Shown: positions 396-36,183, counted from the first letter of the stretch. The stretch is 64,000 nucleotides of DNA from a virus (IMGVR_UViG_3300017963_000208:3601-67600), one strand, 5' to 3'. Translations and numbers: made by a program. The notes: generated from the sequence alone by a model not told the origin.

Positions 396-698
396 TCAAA
401 TGTCAACAGGTTTGTCAAATTTATTTTTCCTAGTATTTTTCATATGCTGTATAGTAGAGGGTCTAAGAAGTTCCTCGGTAGTGGCCCCATTGATATCTAA
501 ATAGCGTTTGCAACTAGGAGGAAGTTGCTGGTTGTCTAAAAATTTTATGCGATACACATTATCATTCCCTTCCTGTTCCCAATTTCCCTGACTAACTAAT
601 TTGGTTACAGTGGCGGGAATGTGAAATGATTCGCAGTACCAACACCACACCATCACCTCATCCCCTGGAAAGTATTTCTGTTCAATGGGTTGGCTCAT
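396..698 (-). CDS. SH3/KOW-like small protein, conserved C-terminal motif family
   Basis: KYFPGDEV N-motif; C-terminal STIQHMKNTRK. Confidence 0.7.
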   Translation of the reverse strand: MSQPIEQKYFPGDEVMVWCWYCESFHIPATVTKLVSQGNWEQEGNDNVYRIKFLDNQQLPPSCKRYLDINGATTEELLRPSTIQHMKNTRKNKFDKPVDI

Positions 699-894
699 CC
701 TCTTCCTCTTGCAGTTCTTTTAATCTAGCTTCCATTTCTTCGGTAGTCATGTTTTTGACTCTTTCGTTGATCTCCCGAATACCTTTTTCCATAAAATCAT
801 AATGCTCATGGCACAAATAAACCAAATCATCTCCAACTCTTATAATCCGGTTGGCGTGTTTAGAACAATTTTTGATTTGACAGGTTTTGCTCAT
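682..894 (-). CDS. Hypothetical protein with Cys/His Zn-binding motif and acidic coiled coil
   Basis: CQIKNC...CHEH; overlaps neighbouring genes. Confidence 0.65.
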   Translation of the reverse strand: MSKTCQIKNCSKHANRIIRVGDDLVYLCHEHYDFMEKGIREINERVKNMTTEEMEARLKELQEEEDEPTH

Positions 895-1085
895 TAAATA
901 CCCGCCAACTCGTAGGATTTCTTAAACATTTCGTAACAGAACTTCGCATGGCGCAAGGCTTTCTCACAATCATGGAGAATACCATAGTCACGAAACTTAA
1001 TCCACATCTTTTTAAAGGTAAGTGCCTGATAGTATGCTTCTATTCCTGTCATTGTTTTTTCCTCCCTATTAATTGATCGTACCAA
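894..1085 (-). CDS. Hypothetical protein
   Basis: ORF tiles with neighbours; likely start at MTGIEAY. Confidence 0.55.
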   Translation of the reverse strand: MVRSINREEKTMTGIEAYYQALTFKKMWIKFRDYGILHDCEKALRHAKFCYEMFKKSYELAGI

Positions 1086-1366
1086 ATTAATTCGCTCTTG
1101 TCAAATTCTTTTTTTACCTTATTTATCATACGGTTAAACTGCATTGTACGGATCGTATCTAGTCGATAATCGGTTAAGCACTCAACCTCTATTTGGTATA
1201 ACAAAGGAGGATTGTTCAGAAAAACTCTGGCTAAATGCTCACTTATATCATCCCCCACTGTCAATACATACATTTTATTTTCTTTTTCTGTCTCGGGTAG
1301 AGAGTAGAGAAATCGTACTTCCCACGATCTTTTCTCTGGCAAAATTCTGTAAACATTTACAATCAC
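1049..1366 (-). CDS. Hypothetical protein (internal DTIRTM resembles the family motif)
   Basis: GTG start overlapping the upstream stop; YRLDTIRTMQ. Confidence 0.6.
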   Translation of the reverse strand: MIVNVYRILPEKRSWEVRFLYSLPETEKENKMYVLTVGDDISEHLARVFLNNPPLLYQIEVECLTDYRLDTIRTMQFNRMINKVKKEFDKSELIWYDQLIGRKKQ

Positions 1367-1836
1367 TTAGCCCACCCCGGTCTCTGTCTATTAGTCCACT
1401 GTGGCTTTCTCTTATCATTTTCCCACTTGTCTTTTAGACATAATCTGTAAGCCTTGAATATATTGAGCTCTTTTTTGAATTTAGTACAGTTAGGAAACAT
1501 AGTGATTTCATTAGACTCTGGCATGAACGCATAGCCGGCATAGAAAATCTCCAAATATTGCTTACACTTATGTGTTTTACCGTAACGAAAGTTATACTCA
1601 TCGCACAAGGCTCTGAAATGGTTTAATAACCACAGGTAGTTAGCTGCGTTAGTCCTTGTCCAGATTGCACAAGGATGGTTGACATGAGTGGGGCGATAGG
1701 GAGCATTAGTAGCCCCCATAACGTGCATAGCGGTAGAGAGCAACTGAGCAGATTCTAGACACATTTTGATCACTCGCTTGTTGTCCAGTACTCTAGCTGA
1801 CTTGTGAGCGTCTAAATATGTAACAAAGATGTTCAC
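1363..1836 (-). CDS. Pyrimidine dimer DNA glycosylase / endonuclease V-like protein
   Basis: MNIF..LD...DNKRVIKMCLESAQLLST and THVNHPCAIW motifs typical of the DenV-like family. Confidence 0.8.
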   Translation of the reverse strand: MNIFVTYLDAHKSARVLDNKRVIKMCLESAQLLSTAMHVMGATNAPYRPTHVNHPCAIWTRTNAANYLWLLNHFRALCDEYNFRYGKTHKCKQYLEIFYAGYAFMPESNEITMFPNCTKFKKELNIFKAYRLCLKDKWENDKRKPQWTNRQRPGWAK

Positions 1837-2048
1837 GCCTTACCTCTCTTCATATATTCTATAGGAGAAACCACTTGTAATTCCCTGATGTTATCGGTTT
1901 CTACGACCCTTCCGGGGATAAACAAATCTCTCAGCAATACTCTACTAAACACATAGTTGATATCATATCTATATTCTATACGGCAGCCTTCGAAAGAGAA
2001 AAGGCATCCCTGGTAACTAACAATTTTGTTTTTTAGATTAATTACCAC
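1833..2048 (-). CDS. Small protein of the conserved C-terminal motif family (N-motif degenerate)
   Basis: C-terminal SPIEYMKRGKA. Confidence 0.65.
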   Translation of the reverse strand: MVINLKNKIVSYQGCLFSFEGCRIEYRYDINYVFSRVLLRDLFIPGRVVETDNIRELQVVSPIEYMKRGKA

Positions 2049-2307
2049 TCTTTCCCTCTTTCATCATAGTCACTGTGTCTAATCCCTGAATATCCGTAGC
2101 ATTGATTCTACCCGTTAAATCACTCCATAAAAAACTCACATAAATAATTGAAAAGATTAGATTACCCTCAAGAGATACACCTTCTATTATATCAACTATT
2201 TCTGCTTTCTCTGTCCCGTGAGTATTATGGAAATAGGTACCAAAATCCACCTGAGAGTGCGGCCTGACAAGGATTCTGTCGCCCTTTTTGTATTTCTTGT
2301 TAGGCAT
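2038..2307 (-). CDS. SH3/KOW-like small protein, conserved C-terminal motif family
   Basis: KYKKGDRI; C-terminal DTVTMMKEGK. Confidence 0.75.
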   Translation of the reverse strand: MPNKKYKKGDRILVRPHSQVDFGTYFHNTHGTEKAEIVDIIEGVSLEGNLIFSIIYVSFLWSDLTGRINATDIQGLDTVTMMKEGKSGN

Positions 2308-2545
2308 ATCTTTTGTTTTTCATGTAGTAGAGGGTATTAAATCCTCTGATTTCATTTTCGTGCATTTCAATTTCTCCGTCAGCCCAGTCTGTAATCCAGT
2401 ATTTTGGAGACCAATCTCTTCGATCAATACCACGCTTTATGATAGTGGCCTCCCATCTCTGATCATACCATTCTATATCTACCCTATCCCCACATTTGTA
2501 TTTATATTTAGGTTTTGGTCTTTTCTTGCGCTTCTTTTTTCCCAC
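2300..2545 (-). CDS. SH3/KOW-like small protein, conserved C-terminal motif family
   Basis: KYKCGDRV; C-terminal NTLYYMKNKR. Confidence 0.75.
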   Translation of the reverse strand: MGKKKRKKRPKPKYKYKCGDRVDIEWYDQRWEATIIKRGIDRRDWSPKYWITDWADGEIEMHENEIRGFNTLYYMKNKRYA

Positions 2546-2795
2546 GATTTCTATTCCTTTTAACTTTCATCTGGTTTATTATATCATATCTAAGAATGTG
2601 TCTATCTGTCAAGTATTGACCCCACCCCATAACTTTATATTTTCTGGAATAAAGGGGCACTGACCCCGTATAAGAGTAATGTTCATAACCCGTTATTTGC
2701 TCATAGACTGATTCTATTTTGGTTCGTACCTCTGTAAGGTATGGAGGTATCCTTACCCACACCCAATCTCCCGCTTGATAGTTAGGTTTATTCAT
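2508..2795 (-). CDS. SH3/KOW-like small protein, conserved C-terminal motif family
   Basis: NYQAGDWV; DIINQMKVKR near the C-terminus. Confidence 0.75.
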   Translation of the reverse strand: MNKPNYQAGDWVWVRIPPYLTEVRTKIESVYEQITGYEHYSYTGSVPLYSRKYKVMGWGQYLTDRHILRYDIINQMKVKRNRNRGKKEAQEKTKT

Positions 2796-3351
2796 CTTCT
2801 AGACTCTTTTCTAATTTCTCCATGTTCTCTTCCGTGGCGTATTTAAAAGGAAACTTAGCCCACAAACGTACTGGATGGTACTGCTCACCACTGCTAGACT
2901 TCTTGCCAACCTTCATATTGGCGAATCTCTCACGCTTTGGGAGCTTTTTAGTGTTGAACCCTTTGTAGACCTCTAACACTTCCTTATCTAGGTCGATCAC
3001 GTAAGCGTATTCACAGAATAGAGAATCAGCAACAAAATCAATAGAGTTACATAAATCTCTAACATTACCACGACTTATCATTGATAGGATATCAGCAGCA
3101 GTATCTCTGCTAAATTCTGGGTACTTGGTGGGCCAAGCATCTCCTACTTTGTCAACTATTGCCTGTATATCCGCGTCCGATAGAAAGCTGCACTCCCTAA
3201 CTGACCACCGGAAATCCTCTAGATCCATTTCATTTTGTATAAAATCACAAATAGTTGCGCCCTGTCCAGTAGGGTATCCATCCCATTGCCCGTACTGAGC
3301 AACTTTGATCTTACCATCACAAACTACAGCGGTAATGTTCCTAGTTCCCAT
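2788..3351 (-). CDS. Conserved phage hypothetical protein (MGTR...Y.QWDGYP type)
   Basis: MGTRN start, YGQWDGYP motif, CEYAYVIDLD motif; a pattern recognised from many phage hypothetical proteins. Confidence 0.7.
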   Translation of the reverse strand: MGTRNITAVVCDGKIKVAQYGQWDGYPTGQGATICDFIQNEMDLEDFRWSVRECSFLSDADIQAIVDKVGDAWPTKYPEFSRDTAADILSMISRGNVRDLCNSIDFVADSLFCEYAYVIDLDKEVLEVYKGFNTKKLPKRERFANMKVGKKSSSGEQYHPVRLWAKFPFKYATEENMEKLEKSLEDE

Positions 3352-3562
3352 TGTTTTTCCTCCACCCTTTTGGAATTTTTCTAGAAGTTTTATCTCTGTT
3401 ATTGTATAGAGAGATAGGGAATAAAATCAACGTCATAAAAAATCCAGCAATTATTTGGCGAGTATAATACCAATCTAACATCCTATTCCACTTAGGAATG
3501 GACAGCCCCAACCAAGCCCCGAAACCTACCAACAACCAACTAATTAACAGTAACTTAACCAT
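3341..3562 (-). CDS. Small membrane protein (two hydrophobic segments)
   Basis: LLLISWLLVGFGAWLGL and IIAGFFMTLILFPISLY. Confidence 0.65.
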   Translation of the reverse strand: MVKLLLISWLLVGFGAWLGLSIPKWNRMLDWYYTRQIIAGFFMTLILFPISLYNNRDKTSRKIPKGWRKNNGN

Positions 3563-3770
3563 TTTTCCTCCCCTTCATATAACTTATTGTTTCTAAACGT
3601 AATTCATCCTCAAGGAAAAATAGTGAACAGTCCTCTAAGTAATACATATTAAAAGGTTTTCCAACTCTTTTGGATGATCTCTCTAACACAACCCCACGTA
3701 CAACTATGCCCTTATATTTCTCTTTGGCAATAACCTTATCACCTATTTTAAATTTATACTTATTTTTCAC
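3555..3770 (-). CDS. SH3/KOW-like small protein, conserved C-terminal motif family
   Basis: KFKIGDKV; C-terminal ELRLETISYMKGRK. Confidence 0.8.
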   Translation of the reverse strand: MKNKYKFKIGDKVIAKEKYKGIVVRGVVLERSSKRVGKPFNMYYLEDCSLFFLEDELRLETISYMKGRKNG

Positions 3771-3996
3771 GAATTGTATCCTTTTTATGTTTCAGAGTGG
3801 TAATAATATCTAATCCTGTTATTTCTCCCGGAAGCATTTTAATAGGGCTTGTCCAATGTTGCTTCTCTGGCAAAAACACACTGACCCTGTAAAATACTGT
3901 GTACTCACCGTGTTCTACCCCAGTAATATAGCCACTGAAGGTGTCACCGTACTTCACTATCACAAAATCCCCTTGTTTATATTCAGATTTAGTCAT
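3760..3996 (-). CDS. SH3/KOW-like small protein, conserved C-terminal motif family
   Basis: EYKQGDFV; C-terminal DIITTLKHKK. Confidence 0.75.
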   Translation of the reverse strand: MTKSEYKQGDFVIVKYGDTFSGYITGVEHGEYTVFYRVSVFLPEKQHWTSPIKMLPGEITGLDIITTLKHKKDTIREK

Positions 3997-4151
3997 GGTT
4001 AGTTGTGCCTTTCATATCTTGTACCACCCTTTTTCCACGATTTAGGCCCTTTTTAGTCCTGTGTTTTTCATTGCTTTCTCCGCCGGCCATATATGACCAT
4101 ACGTGACCATATATGGTAGGTATGCCACTATATATGACATGACACTATACC

Positions 4152-4225
4152 TGCAAGCGCCATGCCAACCTAAGCCGGCTTGCATAAAGCGTGCCAAAGC
4201 TAGAGCTCTTGCAAGGTCCGTGCCA
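4152..4225 (-). promoter_or_regulatory. Three tandem sigma54-type (-24/-12) boxes at 29-bp intervals
   Basis: Minus strand TGGCATGGCGCTTGCA (4152-4167), TGGCACGCTTTATGCA (4181-4196), TGGCACGGACCTTGCA (4210-4225); all GG-N10-GC. Confidence 0.75.
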
Positions 4226-4312
4226 AGGTCAACCTAATGGCCTAACACTAAACCGCTAGGCCTAACCCTACCCTAACACGGTAACACGTACCCTTGCCAC
4301 TCCCTATAAATA

Positions 4313-4364
4313 ATTATATAGGGGAATTTTACCCCTTGCAATTGTCAATAAATAGTGTTATGAT
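4313..4364. promoter_or_regulatory. Divergent sigma70-type promoter pair sharing a palindromic -35
   Basis: TTGCAA at 4336-4341; plus-strand TATGAT at 4359-4364 (17-bp spacer, TGn extension); minus-strand TATAAT at 4318-4313 (17-bp spacer). Confidence 0.65.
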
Positions 4365-4403
4365 CAAAAGACACAAGCAAAAGACTAATGAAAGGGGTAA
4401 GTT

Positions 4404-5282
4404 ATGAGCCAGAAAGTTTTTGAAATCGTAACCAATAGGATAATTGACCAATTAGAACAAGGGGTTATACCATGGCGCAAGCCTTGGAAAAATTCCCGCC
4501 CACCGTGTAACCTGCTTTCTGGCAAGCCTTACAGGGGCATTAATGCCCTTGTATGCTTTCTAACTACCTTTAAAGAGGGGTTTAGTTCACCATTTTGGTT
4601 GACGTTTAAACAAGCCAAGCGGTTAGGCGGTAGTGTCAAGAAAGGCGAAAAGGGCACTCCTATTGTATTCTGGAAGTGGATCAACGGCACTGATAAGGAT
4701 ACAGGCAGGGAAAAAACCTTTCCTTGTGTCCGATATTATACCGCTTTTAACCTGGATCAATGCGAAAACATACCAGAAAGCAAAATTCCACAAGACAAAG
4801 GCCTTGATTTCAAACCGATTGAACAGGCGGAAAAACTTGTTTCAGAATGGTTAGGCAAGCCTGAAATCAGGCATAGCGGCAATATGGCCTGTTATTCCCC
4901 CGCGCTAGATTTCATTAACCTACCGGACCCTAACCGCTTTAAATCGGTTGAGGGGTATTATTCCACCTTGTTTCACGAATTGACGCATAGCACTGGCCAC
5001 CCTAACCGCTTAGGTAGGTTTGAACAAAACGCGGTTAATGGTTTTGGCTCTGATAGCTATAGCAAAGAGGAGCTGATAGCAGAAATTGGCGCGGCTCTGT
5101 TATGTATGCAATGCGGAATTGATAGCGCGGACCTACACCAAAACCAAGCGGCTTACGTGCAAAACTGGTTAAGGGCTCTTAAAGATGATAGGCGCTTGCT
5201 AGTCAATGCGGGACAAGCGGCACAAAAAGCGGTTGACCTTATCAACGGCACCAAACATAAGAAAGGGCCTAGCAATGAATAA
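4404..5282 (+). CDS. ardC: ArdC-like ssDNA-binding antirestriction protein (DUF1738 plus zincin-like domain)
   Basis: GVIPWRKPW, YRGIN, WLTFKQA..LGGSVKKGEKG, YYSTLFHELTHSTGH..RL.R, YSKEEL.AE.GAA.LC motifs. Confidence 0.9.
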   Translation: MSQKVFEIVTNRIIDQLEQGVIPWRKPWKNSRPPCNLLSGKPYRGINALVCFLTTFKEGFSSPFWLTFKQAKRLGGSVKKGEKGTPIVFWKWINGTDKDTGREKTFPCVRYYTAFNLDQCENIPESKIPQDKGLDFKPIEQAEKLVSEWLGKPEIRHSGNMACYSPALDFINLPDPNRFKSVEGYYSTLFHELTHSTGHPNRLGRFEQNAVNGFGSDSYSKEELIAEIGAALLCMQCGIDSADLHQNQAAYVQNWLRALKDDRRLLVNAGQAAQKAVDLINGTKHKKGPSNE

Positions 5283-5466
5283 AGATAGCTGGATCGAGGC
5301 AAGGGAAAATCTACTAATGGAAAGGGTTAACTCTTTAGAGGCAAAGCTAAACCGTTGTCTTGAACAATGGGAAATTGACGCTATAGAGGATAGCCTAACC
5401 GAAAACGATATAGTTAACGAGTATAGCGCCATGGTTGATTATACTTTTGAACTATTGAGGGGGTAA
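5275..5466 (+). CDS. Hypothetical protein (likely start MNKDSW)
   Basis: ORF track 5206-5466; ATG at 5275 overlaps the ardC end with a GGG-rich RBS. Confidence 0.6.
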   Translation: MNKDSWIEARENLLMERVNSLEAKLNRCLEQWEIDAIEDSLTENDIVNEYSAMVDYTFELLRG

Positions 5467-5468
5467 CA

Positions 5469-6200
5469 ATGATTAAACTAAGCCACAATAACAAAAAGGT
5501 TAGTAAGTTAGACGCGGTTAGTTTTGGTATTCAGGCCTTTGCTATCCCCTTTGATATCCTGAAAATGTTTATCAACCGCTTGCCTATTGATACCGAGGCA
5601 AAGCTAGGGGCCTTTGAAAACGTCCACCTTGAGACAAAGCAAAAGACCATTGACAATCAAACCCATTGCCTAACTTGCCCTAGTGCGGGCGCTTGCGGCT
5701 CTGTATGCTATGCCTTGCAAGGGTCCTATAGGTGGAATGTAGTTAAAGCGGCTAGGGCCTGGAATACCGCTTGCACTTTTCTTGATAACTTTGCTTTTCA
5801 TATGACTAAGGCATTGACAAAGGTTAAAAGGCCTATTGTCCGGATACATGATAGCGGCGATTTTTATTCGCTCCGCTACTTCCAGCAATGGGTTAAGGTT
5901 GCAAAGGCCTTGCCGCAAAAGACGTTCTATGCCTATACCAAAAGCCTAATATTTGTCGATTTCAATGCTTTGCCTGATAACTTCAAACTGGTACAATCCC
6001 AAGGGGGAAAACATGACCACTTGTTAAACCCCCTAAAGCCTATAGCGCGTATATTTGAAAGCAGGGAGGCCCTAGAAAAAGCTGGTTTCACCTATGGCAA
6101 TGAAAATGATCTACCAGCAATTCAGGGGGTAAAGCGTATAGGCCTAGTGTACCACGGCACCAAAAAACTAACAGACCAACAAAGGCAATATTTCAAATAG
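5469..6200 (+). CDS. Gp88-like phage protein (Cys cluster, radical-SAM-like motifs)
   Basis: TCPSAGACGSVCYALQG, IVRIHDSGDFYS, FYAYTKS. Confidence 0.75.
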   Translation: MIKLSHNNKKVSKLDAVSFGIQAFAIPFDILKMFINRLPIDTEAKLGAFENVHLETKQKTIDNQTHCLTCPSAGACGSVCYALQGSYRWNVVKAARAWNTACTFLDNFAFHMTKALTKVKRPIVRIHDSGDFYSLRYFQQWVKVAKALPQKTFYAYTKSLIFVDFNALPDNFKLVQSQGGKHDHLLNPLKPIARIFESREALEKAGFTYGNENDLPAIQGVKRIGLVYHGTKKLTDQQRQYFK

Positions 6201-6211
6201 GAGTTAACCCC

Positions 6212-6493
6212 ATGAAAAACAAAAAACGCGGACCATATATTGACAACAAAGCAGAGCGGCAAGCTTTCTACCGTGACGCGCAATGGAATAAAAACTATAG
6301 AGAGCAAAACCGTTGCAAGGCTAGTGATAACCAACCTACCGCTTCACCTATGCAAAAACCGCCTATGCCATGTAGTCAATGCGGCGGTAAAGTAGTCAAG
6401 GGCCTGTTTAGGTACGCTTGCCCTACTTGCCACCCTTTCCACTTCCAAAAATGCGGTATATGCGGTGCAAAGCGCCTTTGGTGTTGCTGCTAG
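6212..6493 (+). CDS. Cys-rich Zn-finger hypothetical protein
   Basis: CSQCG, CPTC, CGICG...WCCC; RBS AGGAG. Confidence 0.6.
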   Translation: MKNKKRGPYIDNKAERQAFYRDAQWNKNYREQNRCKASDNQPTASPMQKPPMPCSQCGGKVVKGLFRYACPTCHPFHFQKCGICGAKRLWCCC

Positions 6494-6523
6494 GCCTTTA
6501 CCCCTTTAGCCTAGTTAGCAGCT

Positions 6524-6562
6524 AAGGCCCCTAGTTATTGCTTGGCTAGGGGCCTTTCTTTA
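6524..6562 (+). terminator. Rho-independent terminator of the ardC operon
   Basis: AAGGCCCCTAG/CTAGGGGCCTT 11-bp stem followed by TCTTTA. Confidence 0.75.
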
Positions 6563-6756
6563 TGATTTCAACCACTTAAATGTTGCTCAGATTGCTTTCT
6601 AAGGGCCTTAAATGGTCTTAGGTATGCTAGGGTACCAGGGGCCTTGAAAAAATCGCTTACAAGCCAAAATAGAGAGCCATAGGACTAGCGGCAAGGCAAA
6701 GGAAAGGGGGTTAAGCATTGCACCTAACCCCCTAGTGTAAAGCAAAGCGGCTAAGG

Positions 6757-6858
6757 CTAATAACCAGCCTTGACTATACGCTTTGCCCTAGTCAAATTGT
6801 TGCGGCGTAGCCTGATAACCACTAGCCAATGTTTCAACCTATCAATCAACCTTTGCAT
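6757..6858 (-). CDS. Very small basic protein (33 aa)
   Basis: MQRLIDRLKHWLVVIRLRRNNLTRAKRIVKAGY*; GGGGG RBS just after the upstream stop. Confidence 0.4.
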   Translation of the reverse strand: MQRLIDRLKHWLVVIRLRRNNLTRAKRIVKAGY

Positions 6859-6867
6859 GGTTTCCCC

Positions 6868-7029
6868 CTAGTCCTGCCTTACGATAACCCTACGCTTGCC
6901 ATTGATAGTCACGATATCAAGGCGCTTGCTAGGCTTGTTTGACTGGTTATCGCTTGCCTTGTCTTTGTCTTGTTTCCTGATAACCTTCGCTTTGTCGCTG
7001 GTTATGATTATTAGGCCTTGTTTGCTCAT
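6868..7029 (-). CDS. Small basic protein (53 aa)
   Basis: MSKQGLIIITSDKAKVIRK...RVIVRQD*; AAGGGG RBS; directly downstream of a strong sigma70 promoter. Confidence 0.55.
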   Translation of the reverse strand: MSKQGLIIITSDKAKVIRKQDKDKASDNQSNKPSKRLDIVTINGKRRVIVRQD

Positions 7030-7061
7030 TGTCTAACCCCTTTGTTTGTCGGTATACTTCG

Positions 7062-7089
7062 ATCATACCAGAAAAAGGGAAAATGTCAA
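7062..7089 (-). promoter_or_regulatory. sigma70-type promoter
   Basis: Minus strand TTGACA-16 bp-TATGAT with TGn extension. Confidence 0.65.
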
Positions 7090-7098
7090 TAAAAACTA

Positions 7099-7128
7099 TT
7101 TAACTATGTATAAGTAGCCACCTATAAT
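7099..7128 (+). promoter_or_regulatory. Phage-specific promoter motif copy 1
   Basis: TTTAACTATGTATAAGTA then TATAAT 6 bp later; upstream of 7143. Confidence 0.7.
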
Positions 7129-7142
7129 AGGGAGTAAAAAAC

Positions 7143-7631
7143 ATGAGTGAAAATAAACTAGAGAAAATCAGGCAACATATTGAAAACACAGTGGGCTTGC
7201 ATAAATTTCTTGATAATTTCTTAGCCAATTTCAAGCGGGAATGTAAAAGAGAAGAAAGAGAGCGCAATAAGTGGCTGAAAAAACAAAGCAGCAAGCCGCA
7301 AAAGCCTTGGACTGGAAAGGCCTTTCAAGCTAGGTTTACCTATGCCAAAAAACAAGCTAGGGAGAGAAGCATTAAATGGACCTTAACAGATAAACAGTAT
7401 TATCAATTGGTTGAAAAGGCTTTATGTTCCTATTGCGGTTACCCCTTAGCAGGTAAAGGAGTGGAATTAGATCGAATAAATAGCAAAGGCATATATGAAA
7501 CAAACAACGTAACCCCCTGTTGTGGTCTATGTAACATGACTAAGGCGCGGGATAAATTTAGTTATAGAGAGATGTTAGACCATATAGGTCCATCCATATC
7601 GAAAGTCAAATACCTACGTGATAAAAAATAG
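7143..7631 (+). CDS. HNH-like (CxxC..DR..N..CxxCN) endonuclease with N-terminal coiled coil
   Basis: CSYCG...ELDRINSKGIYETNNVTPCCGLCNMTK. Confidence 0.75.
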   Translation: MSENKLEKIRQHIENTVGLHKFLDNFLANFKRECKREERERNKWLKKQSSKPQKPWTGKAFQARFTYAKKQARERSIKWTLTDKQYYQLVEKALCSYCGYPLAGKGVELDRINSKGIYETNNVTPCCGLCNMTKARDKFSYREMLDHIGPSISKVKYLRDKK

Positions 7632-7994
7632 TCAAATGAACATTTTGCCCTATTTCCATTAATCTAATAATATCCACAACATACCTACAATACAAAATAC
7701 CCGTGTAATCTACCTACTTAGTGAATATTAAAGGGAAATTTAGTTTTCCCTTTCGAGAGCTCGTCTATGGCATAAAATGCGTTAACTTTTGCCGGCAACG
7801 GCCGGCCAATTAAGGGGCTTTATTCCAGGCGGGACAAGCAAAGGCCTAGCAGGTAGATCAAACCCCCCTTACAAGCCAAATAAGAGCCCTATAGGTATAC
7901 ATATAGAGCCCTATACAGGCCTAGTTAGTTATTGGGTTACATACAGATAAGGTTAGGTGGTTAGTTATTGGGGTAGTAGGGTGGAAATACGGGT

Positions 7995-8485
7995 TGCAAG
8001 ACCCATGCCAACTCTCTATATATCTCAGAATAATTATACCCCTTACCCTATATATACCCCTATATAGGTATATATTGACTACCCTATATGACACTATATG
8101 GCTATCAGTGCTATTAGCCCGCCCCTGCAAGACCTATACCACCATATACGTAACTATAGTTACTAATATATACCCATATATTAATAAATCAGTGTATTTA
8201 TAACTATTGATTATTATGTGATTAAATGCTGGTACTCCACCGATAGAGTAAGCAAGATATATACCAACATAATGGCATAGATATTGAATGGCTATGCAAC
8301 CTTTGTGCCAGAGCTCGCGGGCCTAGATAGAGAACTATAGTTACCCAATGCAATTAATATACCAATGTAGTTATATAGAATGGTACATATATTGCAATAA
8401 ATTAAAATGACCATATATGGATATACATGTATATAGGGGTATGGTAATGTAAAGGGGTACGGTGCTATATGCAAAGACCGTGCCA
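7995..8485. promoter_or_regulatory. Second cluster of sigma54-type boxes
   Basis: Minus: 7995-8010, 8126-8141, 8251-8266, 8295-8310, 8349-8364, 8470-8485; plus: 8381-8396 (and imperfect 8273-8288); TGG(C/T)A(C/T)-N5-TTGC(A/T). Confidence 0.65.
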
Positions 8486-8713
8486 TGGCTCCATCCGGTA
8501 AATCACACACAAACCTAATTTAACCAACTGAACAAATATTCATACTCTATATGGGTCATAAAATAACCCAATTAAGGAATCTATTTGGGTCATTGAGAGA
8601 AGTACCAAAAACCGAGGGGAACAAATATTCAAACCCAGTAAAAATAATCATGAAGAAAAACCCAATGATTTCAAGACTAGGTTAAAACTAGAGTGCTTTT
8701 CGTATAATTATTA

Positions 8714-8743
8714 TTTAACTATGTATAAGTACGCTACTATAAG
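8714..8743 (+). promoter_or_regulatory. Phage-specific promoter motif copy 2
   Basis: TTTAACTATGTATAAGTA then TATAAG 6 bp later; upstream of 8764. Confidence 0.7.
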
Positions 8744-8763
8744 TAGAGGGGGAAAATAAGAAC

Positions 8764-9051
8764 ATGAGAGACTTAATAGATAAAGCTGACCATATATTGA
8801 GAAATAGTCATAGATTTAACGTGGGAGATAAGGTTAAATTTAGAATATCAGATGAAGCTGGAGCTAGAATAGTAAGGGGCAAAGTGCGGCGTGTAGAGAT
8901 AAATTATTTGTGGTCTGGTGTCTATGAAATAGAATTAGATAACCCCTGGGATAAGATATACAAGGACGAGGCTCCTAGAAATACTATGATGATAAGAGAG
9001 GACGTACTCACATTGGATACTTTAGACTATATGAGAAAGAATAAGAAATGA
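8764..9051 (+). CDS. SH3/KOW-like small protein, conserved C-terminal motif family
   Basis: RFNVGDKV; C-terminal DTLDYMRKNKK. Confidence 0.8.
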   Translation: MRDLIDKADHILRNSHRFNVGDKVKFRISDEAGARIVRGKVRRVEINYLWSGVYEIELDNPWDKIYKDEAPRNTMMIREDVLTLDTLDYMRKNKK

Positions 9052-9248
9052 GATTCGAGGTCGGGGATAAGATCAAATTCAAGTGGGGTAAAGGCCATAT
9101 GGTTGGTACCCTATCTAAGTATATAGGTGAAGACTACTGGTGGGTGTTATTTACAGATGGGTGTTTTGACAGGTGTATAGAGATGAGAGGCTACATGTTC
9201 TCCCACGCCAACCCAGTGACTTATATGAGACGTAAGAGGGAAGGATGA
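9048..9248 (+). CDS. SH3/KOW-like small protein, conserved C-terminal motif family
   Basis: RFEVGDKI; C-terminal NPVTYMRRKR. Confidence 0.8.
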   Translation: MRFEVGDKIKFKWGKGHMVGTLSKYIGEDYWWVLFTDGCFDRCIEMRGYMFSHANPVTYMRRKREG

Positions 9249-9529
9249 GTAAATTCGAGCCAGGCGATATAGCTATACATGAGTACCTAAGCATCAGGCA
9301 GAGAGGAGACTTGCCAGATACACTAGAGATACATTGTGAGTGGGTAGCGGATAGAGTAGAGATTATTAAAGAAGCTACGGGGGAGAATCCACACTTAAGT
9401 AACTATTATCGGGATGGCCTTTACTTTGTTTGTAATAAAGACGGAAAGGCTTATATGGTTCCTGTCCAAGAGTTGAGATTGGACGTCGTTAACACTATGA
9501 GACGGAGAAAAGAATCTCGTGAGCAATAA
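9245..9529 (+). CDS. SH3/KOW-like small protein, conserved C-terminal motif family
   Basis: KFEPGDIA; C-terminal ELRLDVVNTMRRRK. Confidence 0.8.
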   Translation: MSKFEPGDIAIHEYLSIRQRGDLPDTLEIHCEWVADRVEIIKEATGENPHLSNYYRDGLYFVCNKDGKAYMVPVQELRLDVVNTMRRRKESREQ

Positions 9530-9746
9530 TAAGTATAAGTTAGGTGATAGGGTTAGATTTAATAGTCAGGGGCTTAAAGGAGTAGGGGTAGTGGTGGCTA
9601 TTTCTCAATTTGCTCCAGATTGTTATGTGGTTCAAGGCCCGCCCCGAGCGGGTGGTCGCGGCCTCCGGATAGACTTACACGAGAAAGAAATGGAATACAG
9701 CGTAATTGGATACATGGTAAGGAAGAAGAATGGGCTGGAAACCTAA
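9519..9746 (+). CDS. SH3/KOW-like small protein, conserved C-terminal motif family
   Basis: KYKLGDRV; C-terminal SVIGYMVRKK. Confidence 0.8.
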   Translation: MSNNKYKLGDRVRFNSQGLKGVGVVVAISQFAPDCYVVQGPPRAGGRGLRIDLHEKEMEYSVIGYMVRKKNGLET

Positions 9747-9978
9747 GTTACACCTATTTCAATTAGGAGACAGGGTAAACTTTAGTTACCTAGGTAGAAA
9801 GGTAACGGGGAAGATTATAGGTATAAGGCCCACTAAATCTCCTTATTCTGGATTCCCCTTATTTCAAGAGTATACGGTAGAATTCTCGGATGGCCCCCGC
9901 ATGAATATGTGCTACTGCAAAGAAAGTGACCTTATGCTGGCAGATACTATAGAGTATATGAAAAGGAAGAAACAGTGA
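9730..9978 (+). CDS. SH3/KOW-like small protein, conserved C-terminal motif family
   Basis: LFQLGDRV; C-terminal DTIEYMKRKK. Confidence 0.8.
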   Translation: MGWKPKLHLFQLGDRVNFSYLGRKVTGKIIGIRPTKSPYSGFPLFQEYTVEFSDGPRMNMCYCKESDLMLADTIEYMKRKKQ

Positions 9979-10205
9979 AATATAAGGTAGGAGACAAGAT
10001 TAAGCTGTCTACGGGGTACGAGTTTAACCCCCAGGTTTATATTGGAACGGTGGTCAAGGAGCCTACCAAGAAGAATAATCTATACCTAATAGAGTTCAAG
10101 GCAGACGAAAGAGGGACCCAGAGGATATACCTAACCGCCGAACAAATACAGCCCTTGAATGTGATGACCTATATGAAAAGGCTTAAGAAATCTCAGACTG
10201 ATTAA
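9975..10205 (+). CDS. SH3/KOW-like small protein, conserved C-terminal motif family
   Basis: KYKVGDKI; C-terminal NVMTYMKRLKK. Confidence 0.8.
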   Translation: MKYKVGDKIKLSTGYEFNPQVYIGTVVKEPTKKNNLYLIEFKADERGTQRIYLTAEQIQPLNVMTYMKRLKKSQTD

Positions 10206-10290
10206 AATAGTCGGCTCAGAACACTAGAGAGCCATATTTCGACCCTATTTTGGCTTAAAAAGACCTGAGTAATACCGGAGGATACCCCAA

Positions 10291-10527
10291 ATGATTAAGA
10301 AAATCACTAAAATCACAGAAGTCGAAGAAATTCGGACAGTTAGTATTACCTGTGACGTGTGTCAGAAAAAGATTACTCCGGACGATATTTGGGAGTGGCA
10401 AGAGATATATTTCGTGGTTTTCACGGGTGGCTACGGTTCTGTGTTTGGAGACGAGACTAAGGTGAGGTGTGAAATCTGTCAACACTGTCTCAAGAAGCTT
10501 ATAGGACCATATTGCCGCTATGAATAA
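10291..10527 (+). CDS. Zn-finger hypothetical protein
   Basis: CDVC...CEICQHC; GGAGG RBS. Confidence 0.7.
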   Translation: MIKKITKITEVEEIRTVSITCDVCQKKITPDDIWEWQEIYFVVFTGGYGSVFGDETKVRCEICQHCLKKLIGPYCRYE

Positions 10528-10792
10528 ATATCAAAAGAAGGATAGGGTCAAGGTTAGGGTGCTGATGCCCCAGAAAGAACCAGGAGTAGCTCGGGGTGAA
10601 AGATGGGTGTCGGGGGAAGTACTGGCCGTAGAACACAATGATTTATTCAATGATTCCTACATCGTATATGTAAAACCCAAGGCTGAGGATAAGTTTCCCT
10701 TCCCGGTGAATATGGCAGCTCCCATACTACACGTAGGTCCAGAGAATTTAAAAAGAGACGTTATAGAGCATATGAGGAAGAATAAGAAATGA
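10520..10792 (+). CDS. SH3/KOW-like small protein, conserved C-terminal motif family
   Basis: KYQKKDRV; C-terminal DVIEHMRKNKK. Confidence 0.8.
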   Translation: MNKYQKKDRVKVRVLMPQKEPGVARGERWVSGEVLAVEHNDLFNDSYIVYVKPKAEDKFPFPVNMAAPILHVGPENLKRDVIEHMRKNKK

Positions 10793-11407: not shown

Positions 11408-11439
11408 CATTTTTTACAGGAACAATTGTTACCATTCTG

Positions 11440-11470
11440 TTTAACTATGTATAAGTATTAGCCTTATTAT
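11440..11470 (+). promoter_or_regulatory. Phage-specific promoter motif copy 3
   Basis: TTTAACTATGTATAAGTA then TATTAT 7 bp later. Confidence 0.65.
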
Positions 11471-12524: not shown

Positions 12525-12719
12525 ATGGACCCTGCTAGTTTATCTATTATAGAAGAAGGCGTAACCGACCCTCCCAGAGGAAGTGAATTAGTGGAATGGT
12601 ATGAATTTTTGGGCATTATGATTCTATGGGATCTAGCTCGCTCGGTATTTACAGCTTGGTTAACCAAATATTGGCTCAGTAAACGGCCAGTGAGCAAGAG
12701 GAAAGCAAAAGATGCCTAA
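12525..12719 (+). CDS. Small membrane protein
   Basis: AGGAGG RBS; hydrophobic segment FLGIMILWDLARSVFTAWL. Confidence 0.6.
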   Translation: MDPASLSIIEEGVTDPPRGSELVEWYEFLGIMILWDLARSVFTAWLTKYWLSKRPVSKRKAKDA

Positions 12720-13038
12720 AATTCGTCGCAGAGGACCCATCAGATACTCCGAAGCTACTGGAATTGATAAGCCTAAGAAGCTTATTGATACAGATAAGAT
12801 AGATGTTATACGGCAGAAGCCTAATCGCGTGAAATTAGGCATCGAAGAGGGTGAGACCCGCTTTCCACCCGAGGCTATAGCGCCAAATAAGCGAAAGTAC
12901 GACGAAAAAGGGCGTTATATTAAGCACAAAAATGATTTTACGAAGAAAAAAGAGGACTCCGATGAAAGAAAAGAGCCCTCTATGGTAGAAGCAATGAAGA
13001 ATACGTCCCTATCTAACCCATATCGGAAGAAAAAGTAG
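12712..13038 (+). CDS. Basic hypothetical protein
   Basis: K/R-rich 108 aa, overlaps neighbours. Confidence 0.65.
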   Translation: MPKIRRRGPIRYSEATGIDKPKKLIDTDKIDVIRQKPNRVKLGIEEGETRFPPEAIAPNKRKYDEKGRYIKHKNDFTKKKEDSDERKEPSMVEAMKNTSLSNPYRKKK

Positions 13039-15669: not shown

Positions 15670-15975
15670 ATGCCCAAACGCGCAGATAAAGCTACAGGAA
15701 AGAGCACGCTGAAACATAGAGGGCATAGCCGTAAACAACAAGGGAAACCGGGTACTCAGGCGTACAAGGCCGAGACTGAAAAAGTCAAGCCTAAACGTAT
15801 GAAGGACCGTGGACCTGGTTCGGCGTTTGCACACGCTCTCTATAGGAGCGAAGCTGCTCGTCTTAAAGAAGAGTCAAAGAAGCCAGGAAATCTGGGCTAC
15901 AAAGAGACTATTCCTGCTGGCCCTCAAGCAATGAACAAATCTTTGACTAAACATCTTAAAAAAGGCAAGAAATAA
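15670..15975 (+). CDS. Small highly basic protein
   Basis: K/R/H-rich, contains LKHRG. Confidence 0.65.
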   Translation: MPKRADKATGKSTLKHRGHSRKQQGKPGTQAYKAETEKVKPKRMKDRGPGSAFAHALYRSEAARLKEESKKPGNLGYKETIPAGPQAMNKSLTKHLKKGKK

Positions 15976-16232
15976 TGCCTGAAGATAAGAAGAATTCTCC
16001 TCAAGGTACAGCTCCAAATAATTCTGTACAGCAGACTCCGGTGGTGAGGCCTACCAGAACCTCTAACAAAAAGAGGATTATAGAGGCCCTAAAGAAAAAA
16101 GACCACCTATCAGGGAGTCTCTACGTTGATGCTCATAAAGATGTTGAAGTGTATCAGAAGCTGTTTGAGAAAAAGGGGCATAATATTATTGAGAATTCCA
16201 AAAATTTAAAGAAATCAAGGAGTAAAAAATAA
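15975..16232 (+). CDS. Small basic protein
   Basis: TAATG-coupled on both sides. Confidence 0.65.
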   Translation: MPEDKKNSPQGTAPNNSVQQTPVVRPTRTSNKKRIIEALKKKDHLSGSLYVDAHKDVEVYQKLFEKKGHNIIENSKNLKKSRSKK

Positions 16233-17181: not shown

Positions 17182-17328
17182 ATGGCTAAAGAGAAACGTA
17201 AAGTTTCGGATAAGGCTTTTGCGTTAAAGCATCGTGGCAAAAAGCTCAACCAGGGTGACCAGGTTGGCATGCCTAAACCTTTGGCAAAAGAAGAAGTTGC
17301 TAAAAGCCTAAAAAAGAAAAAAAAGTAA
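17182..17328 (+). CDS. Small highly basic protein (48 aa)
   Basis: MAKEKRKVSDKAFALKHRGKK...KKKKK*; AAGGAG RBS; below the ORF-track cutoff. Confidence 0.65.
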   Translation: MAKEKRKVSDKAFALKHRGKKLNQGDQVGMPKPLAKEEVAKSLKKKKK

Positions 17329-22709: not shown

Positions 22710-23045
22710 ATGGGTCTTTTAAGATTAGACAGACAACGTCTAGAAATTAATATGATTTTGGGTGTACTAGAAGAGTATAAACCCACAGCTCAGGTGAAAC
22801 GTCTCCAAAAACGTTTAGAAGGTCTTCGTAAGAAGTATTCAGATGCTATGGAAGTTTTCCGTAAGGTAACTCAAGACGAAATATCTCCAGAGCTGAACTC
22901 TATTGAAGAAGAAGTTAACGAAATTAATAATACAGCTTATCCGGAATTAGCTCAATTACAACAAGGTGATGTTGTAGAACCCCTTAAAATCAAAAAAGAT
23001 AAGCCTAAATCCAAAAAGAAAGCTACCAAAAAAGCTAAGAAATAA
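22710..23045 (+). CDS. Coiled-coil hypothetical protein with Lys-rich tail
   Basis: ORF track; GGAGG RBS. Confidence 0.7.
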   Translation: MGLLRLDRQRLEINMILGVLEEYKPTAQVKRLQKRLEGLRKKYSDAMEVFRKVTQDEISPELNSIEEEVNEINNTAYPELAQLQQGDVVEPLKIKKDKPKSKKKATKKAKK

Positions 23046-35722: not shown

Positions 35723-35893
35723 ATGGCTAAGAAATGTATGAAGGGACAGAAAAAAGTCCGTAAGGTCATGAAGGAATATAAGAGCGGAAAGCTTCGTTCT
35801 GGTTCCAAAAAAGGACCTAAAGTTAAAAGTCGTAAACAAGCAGTTGCTATTGCTATGTCCGAGGCTGGATTGTCCAAGAAGAGGAAAAAGTAA
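35723..35893 (+). CDS. Small basic protein, DUF6496-like
   Basis: KVRKVMKEYKSGKLRSGS..KVKSRKQAVAIAMSEAG; 56 aa, below the ORF-track cutoff. Confidence 0.75.
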   Translation: MAKKCMKGQKKVRKVMKEYKSGKLRSGSKKGPKVKSRKQAVAIAMSEAGLSKKRKK

Positions 35894-36183
35894 TGGCAGC
35901 GAAGAAAAAGAGCAAATATGTTGGTTTTAGTAAACTAGTTAAAAAAATGGGTGCAAAAACCAAGAAAGCTCATAAGGATCGTCTTAAGGGTGGTTTAGCA
36001 GATAAAAGTAAACCATCAGATTTTTCTAAAAAACAGTTGGAAATGGGTATTAAAGTAGAGAGGGAACATACCAGCAATAAGAAGATTGCTAGAGAAATTG
36101 CTATGGATCACCTGAAGGAAGACCCTAAATATTATACCAAATTGAAAAAGATTGAAAAGAAAAAACCAAGGAGAAAGAAGTAA
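35893..36183 (+). CDS. Small basic protein, DUF5661-like
   Basis: QLEMGIKVEREHT...AREIAMDHLKEDPKYYTKL. Confidence 0.75.
   Translation: MAAKKKSKYVGFSKLVKKMGAKTKKAHKDRLKGGLADKSKPSDFSKKQLEMGIKVEREHTSNKKIAREIAMDHLKEDPKYYTKLKKIEKKKPRRKK

Follow-up and report, generated by a model that had tools for sequence, protein, structure and literature searches.

Why should a single phage place a common short basic peptide at the C-termini of some 30 distinct small proteins? The question is raised by a 64,000-nucleotide stretch of viral DNA, bases 3601-67600 of an IMG/VR virus record of 107,565 bp (IMGVR_UViG_3300017963_000208; 94% complete). This stretch is referred to below as the window, and coordinates are those of the window unless stated otherwise. 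An earlier note on the window had described an array of at least 14 small open reading frames (ORFs) with variable barrel-like bodies and a constant C-terminal motif, here called the tag. The tag is a portable peptide of about 12 residues that is found on Tudor/SH3-like barrels and on at least ten unrelated bodies. The reading that we favour, to which we give a probability of roughly 0.45, is that it serves as a putative address or docking peptide read by one partner.

The 14 ORFs were all confirmed in position, strand and ending, and the N-terminal motif, claimed for all of them except the ORF at 1833, is present in the other 13. The count of at least 14 stood as a lower bound and was too low, as the window holds 15 tagged ORFs and the whole virus record at least 31. 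The tagged ORFs of the window are as follows (lengths in amino acids, aa; HMM, hidden Markov model).

396..698, minus strand: barrel mini-protein, 100 aa; tag PSTIQHMKNTRK at 426-461, then 14 more residues.
1049..1366, minus strand: fifteenth tagged ORF, 105 aa, start may be internal; tag LDTIRTMQFNRM at 1127-1162, 30 residues ahead of the stop; body unmatched by the barrel HMM.
1833..2048, minus strand: tagged mini-protein, 71 aa, with a divergent body that matches the family weakly (barrel HMM, E = 9e-4); tag VSPIEYMKRGKA at 1836-1871.
2038..2307, minus strand: barrel mini-protein, 89 aa; tag LDTVTMMKEGKS at 2047-2082.
2300..2545, minus strand: barrel mini-protein, 81 aa; tag FNTLYYMKNKRY at 2306-2341.
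2508..2795, minus strand: barrel mini-protein, 95 aa; tag YDIINQMKVKRN at 2553-2588, then 19 more residues.
3555..3770, minus strand: barrel mini-protein, 71 aa; tag LETISYMKGRKN at 3561-3596.
3760..3996, minus strand: barrel mini-protein, 78 aa; tag LDIITTLKHKKD at 3778-3813, the sole Leu-type tag of this genome.
8764..9051, plus strand: barrel mini-protein, 95 aa; tag LDTLDYMRKNKK at 9013-9048; first gene after a promoter-like repeat at 8711-8731.
9048..9248, plus strand: barrel mini-protein, 66 aa; tag ANPVTYMRRKRE at 9207-9242.
9245..9529, plus strand: barrel mini-protein, 94 aa; tag LDVVNTMRRRKE at 9479-9514; gene deleted, by recombination at the tag, in a relative with 95% capsid identity.
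9519..9746, plus strand: barrel mini-protein, 75 aa; tag YSVIGYMVRKKN at 9696-9731.
9730..9978, plus strand: barrel mini-protein, 82 aa; tag ADTIEYMKRKKQ at 9940-9975.
9975..10205, plus strand: barrel mini-protein, 76 aa, the member that was modelled; tag LNVMTYMKRLKK at 10155-10190; no gene closely downstream.
10520..10792, plus strand: barrel mini-protein, 90 aa; tag RDVIEHMRKNKK at 10754-10789.

The 47 distinct tags of this genome and of its sister (contigs L004-L010) gave the consensus x-L-[DN]-[TVI]-[ILV]-x-[YT]-M-[KR]-x-x-[KR], with Met (position 0) in 46 of the 47, Lys or Arg at +1 in 40 and Lys or Arg at +4 in 44. A loose regular expression for the motif was matched 33 times in the ORFs of the genome, against 7.0 ± 2.4 times in shuffles. 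An HMM of the tag only was built from the last 18 aligned columns, much as the earlier note had proposed; at E ≤ 0.26, where 0.3 false hits are expected, it recovered 31 ORFs of the genome, 11 of them outside the training set, as well as tags in the sister contigs. At least 16 tagged ORFs lie outside the window in the same genome, and tagged genes make up about one sixth of the genes of the phage. The motif lies on the coding strand and at most 10 residues from the stop in nearly all of the 31 ORFs. Among the 47 distinct tags, 39 have 4-10 residues after the Met, and in five the motif lies 30-41 residues ahead of the stop, so that, as had been noted before, the motif persists when extra residues follow it.

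After removal of the tag, 11 of the 31 ORFs were unmatched by the barrel model (E = 0.2-10). The non-barrel tagged bodies include a CxxC...CxxC zinc-ribbon, several Cys-rich proteins of 100-130 aa, a helical protein of 88 aa and ORF 1049..1366; ten non-barrel tagged proteins searched against Pfam and PHROG gave nothing above threshold. Tags were likewise present on non-barrel bodies in the sister contigs, including a 153-aa protein (P0151) that ends AVDYMKRNKK. The tag is missing from a 58%-identical homologue of another phage (P0152), which stops just short of it, and from nine remoter homologues; the peptide is thus an add-on that the fold does not need. The earlier description of variable barrels with a constant tag therefore holds in that the tag is separable from a variable body, and is too narrow in restricting the tag to barrels.

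The models agree with this separation. In the AlphaFold2 model of the 76-aa member (window:9975-10202) the barrel strands (residues 8-12, 21-33, 36-43 and 47-53) have a predicted local distance difference test score (pLDDT) of 80-89, and the C-terminal helix (residues 63-74) has a pLDDT of 56. The model of P0151 is poor (pLDDT 62) and no fold was found for it by Foldseek; the tag is again a terminal helix, with values below 50. At these values on two modelled bodies the helix is not confidently packed into either fold. Taken with the unrelated bodies and the tag-less homologues, this goes against the helix being an integral core element of a known domain.

The conservation is that of a protein sequence. 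At the conserved residues of the 47 tags, codon positions 1 and 2 mostly carry about 0.4-1.9 bits and position 3 about 0-0.25 bits, except where it is fixed by the code, and Asp, Thr, Ile, Tyr, Lys, Arg and Leu are each encoded by several codons, as expected from the earlier proposal of selection at the protein level. The number of Lys and Arg among the last six residues was compared between genes with the next gene within 15 nucleotides (nt) and genes with the next gene far away: it is 2.45 and 2.25, respectively, for tagged genes, and 1.27 and 1.53 for non-tag genes. Given the free third positions, the motifs 30-41 residues from the stop and a basicity that does not depend on the distance to the downstream gene, overlap with the ribosome-binding site (Shine-Dalgarno sequence) of the next gene does not explain the motif. 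The tag is also more conserved than the bodies that carry it: diverged orthologue pairs are 58-92% identical in the tag and 38-67% in the body, and the orthologue of 10520..10792 is 44% identical in the body and identical at 8 of 12 residues in the tag.

The tag helix is polar and basic (net charge, +2.6; mean Eisenberg hydrophobicity, -0.39). Its hydrophobic moment (0.29) is no higher than that of shuffled sequences (0.34), so that the amphipathic character attributed to it earlier was not borne out; on the same two measures a membrane-targeting helix of the MinD/FtsA type, strongly amphipathic with an apolar face, was not supported. By our own helical-wheel geometry the conserved residues at -4, -3, 0, +1 and +4 fall on one side of the helix.

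The bodies of the 14 ORFs form a family of their own. When aligned, they are 12-30% identical to the first member, with a mean column identity of 24%; the Gly-Asp of the N-terminal strand (x-[YF]-x-x-G-D-x-V) and the Met of the C-terminal motif are nearly invariant. An HMM built from the 14 recovers exactly those 14 among the 586 ORFs of the window (E = 1e-8 to 3e-24; next best, 0.2), and the whole genome holds 19-21 barrel family members. The ratio of non-synonymous to synonymous substitution rates is 0.03-0.45 (orthologues in relatives with 95% capsid identity; synonymous sites partly saturated), which identifies the 14 ORFs as expressed and constrained genes rather than chance frames; they are real accessory genes under purifying selection.

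Searches with the 14 members gave no Pfam match better than E = 0.01 and none above a family cut-off, and no PHROG match below E = 0.02. In a profile search of 1.84 billion representative proteins, the full-length matches were to proteins of the phage itself and of a few relatives only. The other matches were long repeat proteins hit many times by the N-terminal half of the profile (E down to 6e-21, over 13-26 stretches), their units being Tudor_5/SGF29_Tudor/Agenet or Mind-bomb SH3 units. Among solved structures, the profile gave a weak match that spans the SH3-like barrel of ribosomal protein bL19 (E = 0.003). The best Foldseek matches of the 76-aa model were the SGF29 Tudor, the MSL3 chromo-barrel, the SMN Tudor, PWWP and eL21, with probabilities of 0.9-1.0, but with E-values of 0.03-0.2 and template modelling (TM) scores of 0.44-0.56; in the ESM Atlas the matches were unnamed phage clusters and Tudor/Agenet look-alikes only.

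Together, profiles and model support the assignment of the 14 bodies, at the level of the fold, to SH3/Tudor-like small beta-barrels belonging to no named family, in line with the KOW/SH3/Tudor type first suggested for them. The N-terminal strand, small barrel and terminal helix are those of Tudor, chromo-barrel and SH3-like domains (SGF29, MSL3, bL19, eL21, Sso7d-type). Unlike members of those families, the 14 bodies fall below every Pfam and PHROG threshold and reach a Foldseek E-value of 0.03 at best, and neither the aromatic cage nor the ribosomal context of these families is implied for them. The barrel family is lineage-specific and constitutes a large, unannotated, phage-specific branch of Tudor/SH3-like mini-proteins.

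Relatives of the phage by capsid are numerous in IMG/VR, and records with 95% capsid identity carry the arrays. In a more distant record (G002; 75% capsid identity; 117 kb with direct terminal repeats), barrels and other bodies carry C-terminal tags, about 24 in all. Their form is LD[TV]Ix[TQ]LKx[LI]K: Met is replaced by Leu in 23 of 24, and +3 is usually Leu or Ile. The tag thus comes in two dialects, each lineage-wide: the Met type of this phage and of its sister (46 of 47) and the Leu type of G002 (23 of 24; Fisher p = 2e-16). Each genome has a single tag of the other dialect, at 3760-3996 here (Leu-type) and at 4117-4368 in G002. Five other relatives (G001, with 75% capsid identity, G003, G004, G005 and G009) gave no match to the family profile, and no tags were found in G001 and G004, which were also scanned with the tag HMMs. 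None of the tagged genes of this phage (G000) has a BLAST orthologue in G002, though the core genes are 45-75% identical; as judged from these comparisons, the tagged repertoire has been wholly turned over between the two phages and the tag retained.

Rearrangement can be followed at closer range in a relative with 95% capsid identity (G006). Here a fusion has made a single ORF of genes 8764 and 9048, and gene 9245 is missing (L160:3776-4150 and L160:4125-4367). The orthologue of gene 9519 (9519..9746) has kept its body (94% identity) and had its tag swapped for a different, duplicated one (YMKYMRRKREE). Two extra family members that are not in the window are also present, and the rearrangement junctions lie at the conserved motifs of the family. 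Over 30 nt, the DNA that encodes different tags reaches 90% identity. The arrays are therefore remodelled by recombination between tags.

How might such a tag work? It consists of an N-cap Asp or Asn and a short basic helix with one conserved face (Thr/Val at -4, Ile/Leu at -3, Met at 0, Lys/Arg at +1 and +4). If it is an address or docking peptide, this face would be recognised by one partner, of host or phage origin. About 30 different small proteins would thereby share a destination or a fate, be it a host hub, the capsid interior, as for the internal proteins of T4, or a protease, and the variable bodies would supply the individual functions. Each of these outcomes has its own standing: a host hub as the partner is unlikely, loading into the capsid in the manner of the T4 capsid targeting sequence (CTS) would be rather less likely, and timed proteolysis via the tag appears improbable. 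A stronger form of the proposal, which we put forward tentatively, is that the phage sorts its proteins by means of the tag as a common handle. One receptor would read some 30 unrelated small effectors by this helix; it would be either a single host hub or a surface of the capsid or scaffold, the latter in a C-terminal counterpart of the T4 CTS. The Met and Leu dialects would track the pocket of the receptor in each lineage.

Several results weigh against a dedicated reader. Presence/absence profiling across the relatives gave no convincing candidate for one. The sizeable genes found in G000 and G002 only (and not in G001 or G004) encode two metallophosphoesterases, ThyX, an amidase and unknowns of 363 and 200 aa, none of which is an obvious reader, and one phosphoesterase type is also present on a contig of another phage that is free of tags over the 11.6 kb read. 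The two dialects could stem from founder effects and recombination between tags; such recombination was observed, and each genome tolerates its one tag of the other dialect. With BLAST orthologues in G002 lacking for all tagged genes of G000, co-evolution of tag and reader cannot be followed from gene to gene.

The 363-aa protein (genome 647-1738; L001:650-1738; minus strand) is very basic and matches no family. It is shared only with the tag-bearing G002 (27% identity), in synteny beside the SLT-like gene, and in both genomes it lies amid tagged genes; it is a possible lead in the search for the reader. A complex predicted between a barrel member and a non-barrel tagged protein scored 0.00 in a run that had no controls, and counts neither for nor against binding.

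Two further candidate functions gained no support. Authentic FtsZ proteins end in LD[IV]PxFLR[KR], and mimicry of this C-terminal peptide was considered; the C-termini of five FtsZ proteins from Desulfobacterota and Gammaproteobacteria gave no alignment to the tag HMM of either type, Met or Leu. The head-module and scaffold proteins were inspected for a clue to virion loading and carry no tag, only generic Lys-rich tails that are common to tag-less relatives. Proteins of the structural module ending in runs of Lys (KKGKK, KKKKK, KKAKK, PRRKK) are encoded on the plus strand at 12712-13038, 15670-15975, 15975-16232, 17182-17328, 22710-23045 and 35723-36183. As some of their orthologues in tag-less relatives also end in basic residues, the structural Lys tails are a matter separate from the tag. 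On the contig of P0152 (L162:1-11632), several consecutive genes have Gly/Lys/Arg-rich ends (YGRKGL, KSLGL, LYGK, KFGL, KYGR), which may be endings of the kind encoded by a ribosome-binding site.

Two rival explanations would leave the tag without a reader and without a role of its own. The helix might be the last structural element of each domain, since a terminal helix is indeed present in chromo-barrel, PWWP and Sso7d-like barrels, folds that Foldseek matched; but the same motif stands on unrelated bodies, homologues of one body do without it, the helix is modelled at low confidence and it is better conserved than the barrel core. This explanation is largely refuted and we consider it very improbable. 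The conservation might instead lie in the DNA, as an overlap of ribosome-binding sites with the next gene or as a junction for cassette recombination. Most of the genes do abut or overlap the next start, with a Shine-Dalgarno-like core upstream in 120 of 164, some tag-coding stretches are 73-90% identical over 30 nt, and the fusion, deletion and tag swap in the relative have their junctions at conserved motifs. The third codon positions are free, however, with synonymous codons mixed; some motifs lie far from the stop, and the basicity of the tails does not follow the distance to the next gene. Recombination between tags follows from their similarity and leaves the conservation of the protein sequence unexplained. 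The codon-position pattern refutes this explanation as the sole one, and its chance of being correct is slighter still.

Other rivals grant the tag a function, though not as an address. It might be a generic polyanion-binding tail with an unspecific affinity for DNA, RNA or ribosomes and no dedicated reader, like the basic C-terminal helix of the Sso7d type. The net charge of the helix fits this, as do the bodies, since Tudor/SH3-like barrels and zinc-ribbons often bind nucleic acid, and many other proteins of the phage, structural ones included, have Lys-rich ends. Yet unspecific binding needs neither the invariant Met, the fixed N-cap and the fixed Thr/Val and Ile/Leu nor the +1/+4 spacing of the Lys residues, and the structural Lys-rich tails, common to tag-less relatives, lack the motif; we judge such a tail to be an unlikely explanation. 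Substantially less credit is given to the tag being a site that a phage enzyme recognises or modifies. A radical-SAM enzyme serving many substrates would be an example, akin to the systems of ribosomally synthesized and post-translationally modified peptides (RiPPs), where many precursors share one maturase. All three tag-bearing lineages have a radical-SAM or radical-SAM-like ORF, and none was found in five tag-less relatives, although this sample is small (3 against 5 related genomes, two of the five incomplete). The enzymes are a 323-aa protein with a CxxxCxxC motif in G000 (genome 67813-68784; L002:216-1184; minus strand; 17.9 bits, below the Pfam threshold), a 448-aa protein in G002 (43.7 bits) and a 281-aa protein in L004 (38.1 bits), the last flanked by tagged genes. 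No SPASM domain was found in them; the three are non-orthologous, with only the cluster-binding stretch in common, so that their co-occurrence with the tag is only a lead. Finally, the tags might bind each other, or the barrels might bind the tags, giving hetero-oligomers or chains in which the copies must stay compatible. The dialect is indeed uniform within each genome, and Tudor and SH3 barrels are established peptide-binding modules, but any hydrophobic stripe on the Met-dialect helix is too weak for a coiled coil, and many of the tagged bodies are not barrels; this too is improbable, and a little more so than a modification site.

The favoured reading, that of an address or docking peptide, belongs to a kind already known, namely shared targeting or docking peptides on diverse phage proteins. 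The CTS of T4-type phages is N-terminal, directs proteins to the scaffolding core and is cut off by the prohead protease. The internal proteins of T-even phages are highly diverse defence proteins in which only the CTS is conserved (PMC3012670). The likeness is that of one short conserved peptide on highly diverse small phage proteins, and the rapid turnover and recombination of the internal-protein gene sets are seen here too. The present peptide differs in being C-terminal, in its unrelated sequence and in its presence on about 30 genes, and it is known from genes alone.

Peptides at the C-terminus are also on record. The acidic tails of gp2.5 and gp4 of T7 and the clamp-binding tails of T4 are cases in which several proteins of one phage have the same short C-terminal peptide and one reader. 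These tails are acidic or hydrophobic, sit on a few replication proteins and have known readers, whereas the basic tag of this phage is carried by about 30 small accessory proteins. Cargo-loading peptides of encapsulins are, like the tag, portable C-terminal peptides on unrelated bodies; they are read by the inner face of a shell of the HK97 fold, the fold that phage capsids share. They have no sequence likeness to the tag, and the scaffold-like and head-module proteins of this phage are tag-free. Host-takeover gene arrays of large virulent phages, such as the terminal-repeat module of SPO1, resemble the present loci as dense arrays of small genes at arm starts or genome ends, and the tagged genes of G002 cluster at 1-9 kb and 98-116 kb, like takeover arrays near genome ends. 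To our knowledge, no common terminal peptide has been described for host-takeover modules.

In searches of the literature, neither the tag sequence nor its C-terminal position nor a shared peptide on such a scale was found to be described, in agreement with the earlier failure to place the tag in any described family. The exact degenerate DNA pattern of the canonical tag had no match in IMG/VR, in a search from which the record itself and near records were excluded. If one reader does recognise the helix, about one sixth of the genes of the phage would be handled as a group, and the tag would mark accessory or host-interaction proteins that are invisible to annotation tools. It would also provide a handle with which to pull down the common partner or to load foreign cargo. 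The two dialects and the tag-less relatives constitute a natural experiment for finding the reader.

The phage itself is an uncultured marine-sediment phage of the myovirus type, with genes for a large terminase, a major head protein, a tail sheath and a baseplate wedge. Other genes encode a family A DNA polymerase, a DnaB-like helicase, a bacterial-type RecA, a ribonucleotide reductase, PhoH and an RNA ligase; no tRNA genes were found in the genome. Near-identical DNA is present in sediment and seawater metagenomes, and the sequencing runs that contain the sequence are DNA runs only. The recA gene (genome 72198-73175; L002:4601-5575; minus strand; Pfam RecA, 372 bits) encodes a protein 55-60% identical to the RecA of many Proteobacteria and Desulfobacterota alike, a Desulfurivibrionaceae metagenome-assembled genome being listed first. 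The capsid protein is only about 35% identical to that of PB1-like phages. A search of a collection of phage records gave no DNA match to the array region and no tblastn match for a family member.

In genome coordinates, the genes point rightward from about 12.3 kb on, the structural module included, and leftward from about 7.6 kb and, with the ends of the record joined, from the far end down to 66 kb. The two arrays sit at the heads of these two divergent transcription arms. Between them lie a gene-poor stretch and the following two genes.

4404-5282, plus strand: ArdC-type anti-restriction gene, ArdcN and MPTase-PolyVal zincin peptidase (E = 1e-34 to 5e-36).
5469-6200: GP88-family gene, adjoining the ArdC gene.

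The ArdC gene has no homologue in G002. The arrays may have an early-effector or anti-defence role, as suggested solely by their position beside the ArdC gene where the arms diverge.

A scan for sigma-70 promoters gave results that were overall not above chance. A 21-nt repeat (consensus about TATTTAACTATGTATAAGTA; copies 95-100% identical) precedes three plus-strand units and is probably a phage-specific promoter. The copies are as follows.

7096-7116, plus strand: 21-nt repeat.
8711-8731, plus strand: 21-nt repeat, heading the tagged plus-strand array.
11437-11457, plus strand: 21-nt repeat.

The plus-strand array is broken up by an untagged ORF of 78 aa (10291-10527, plus strand) that has two CxxC pairs and is zinc-ribbon-like.

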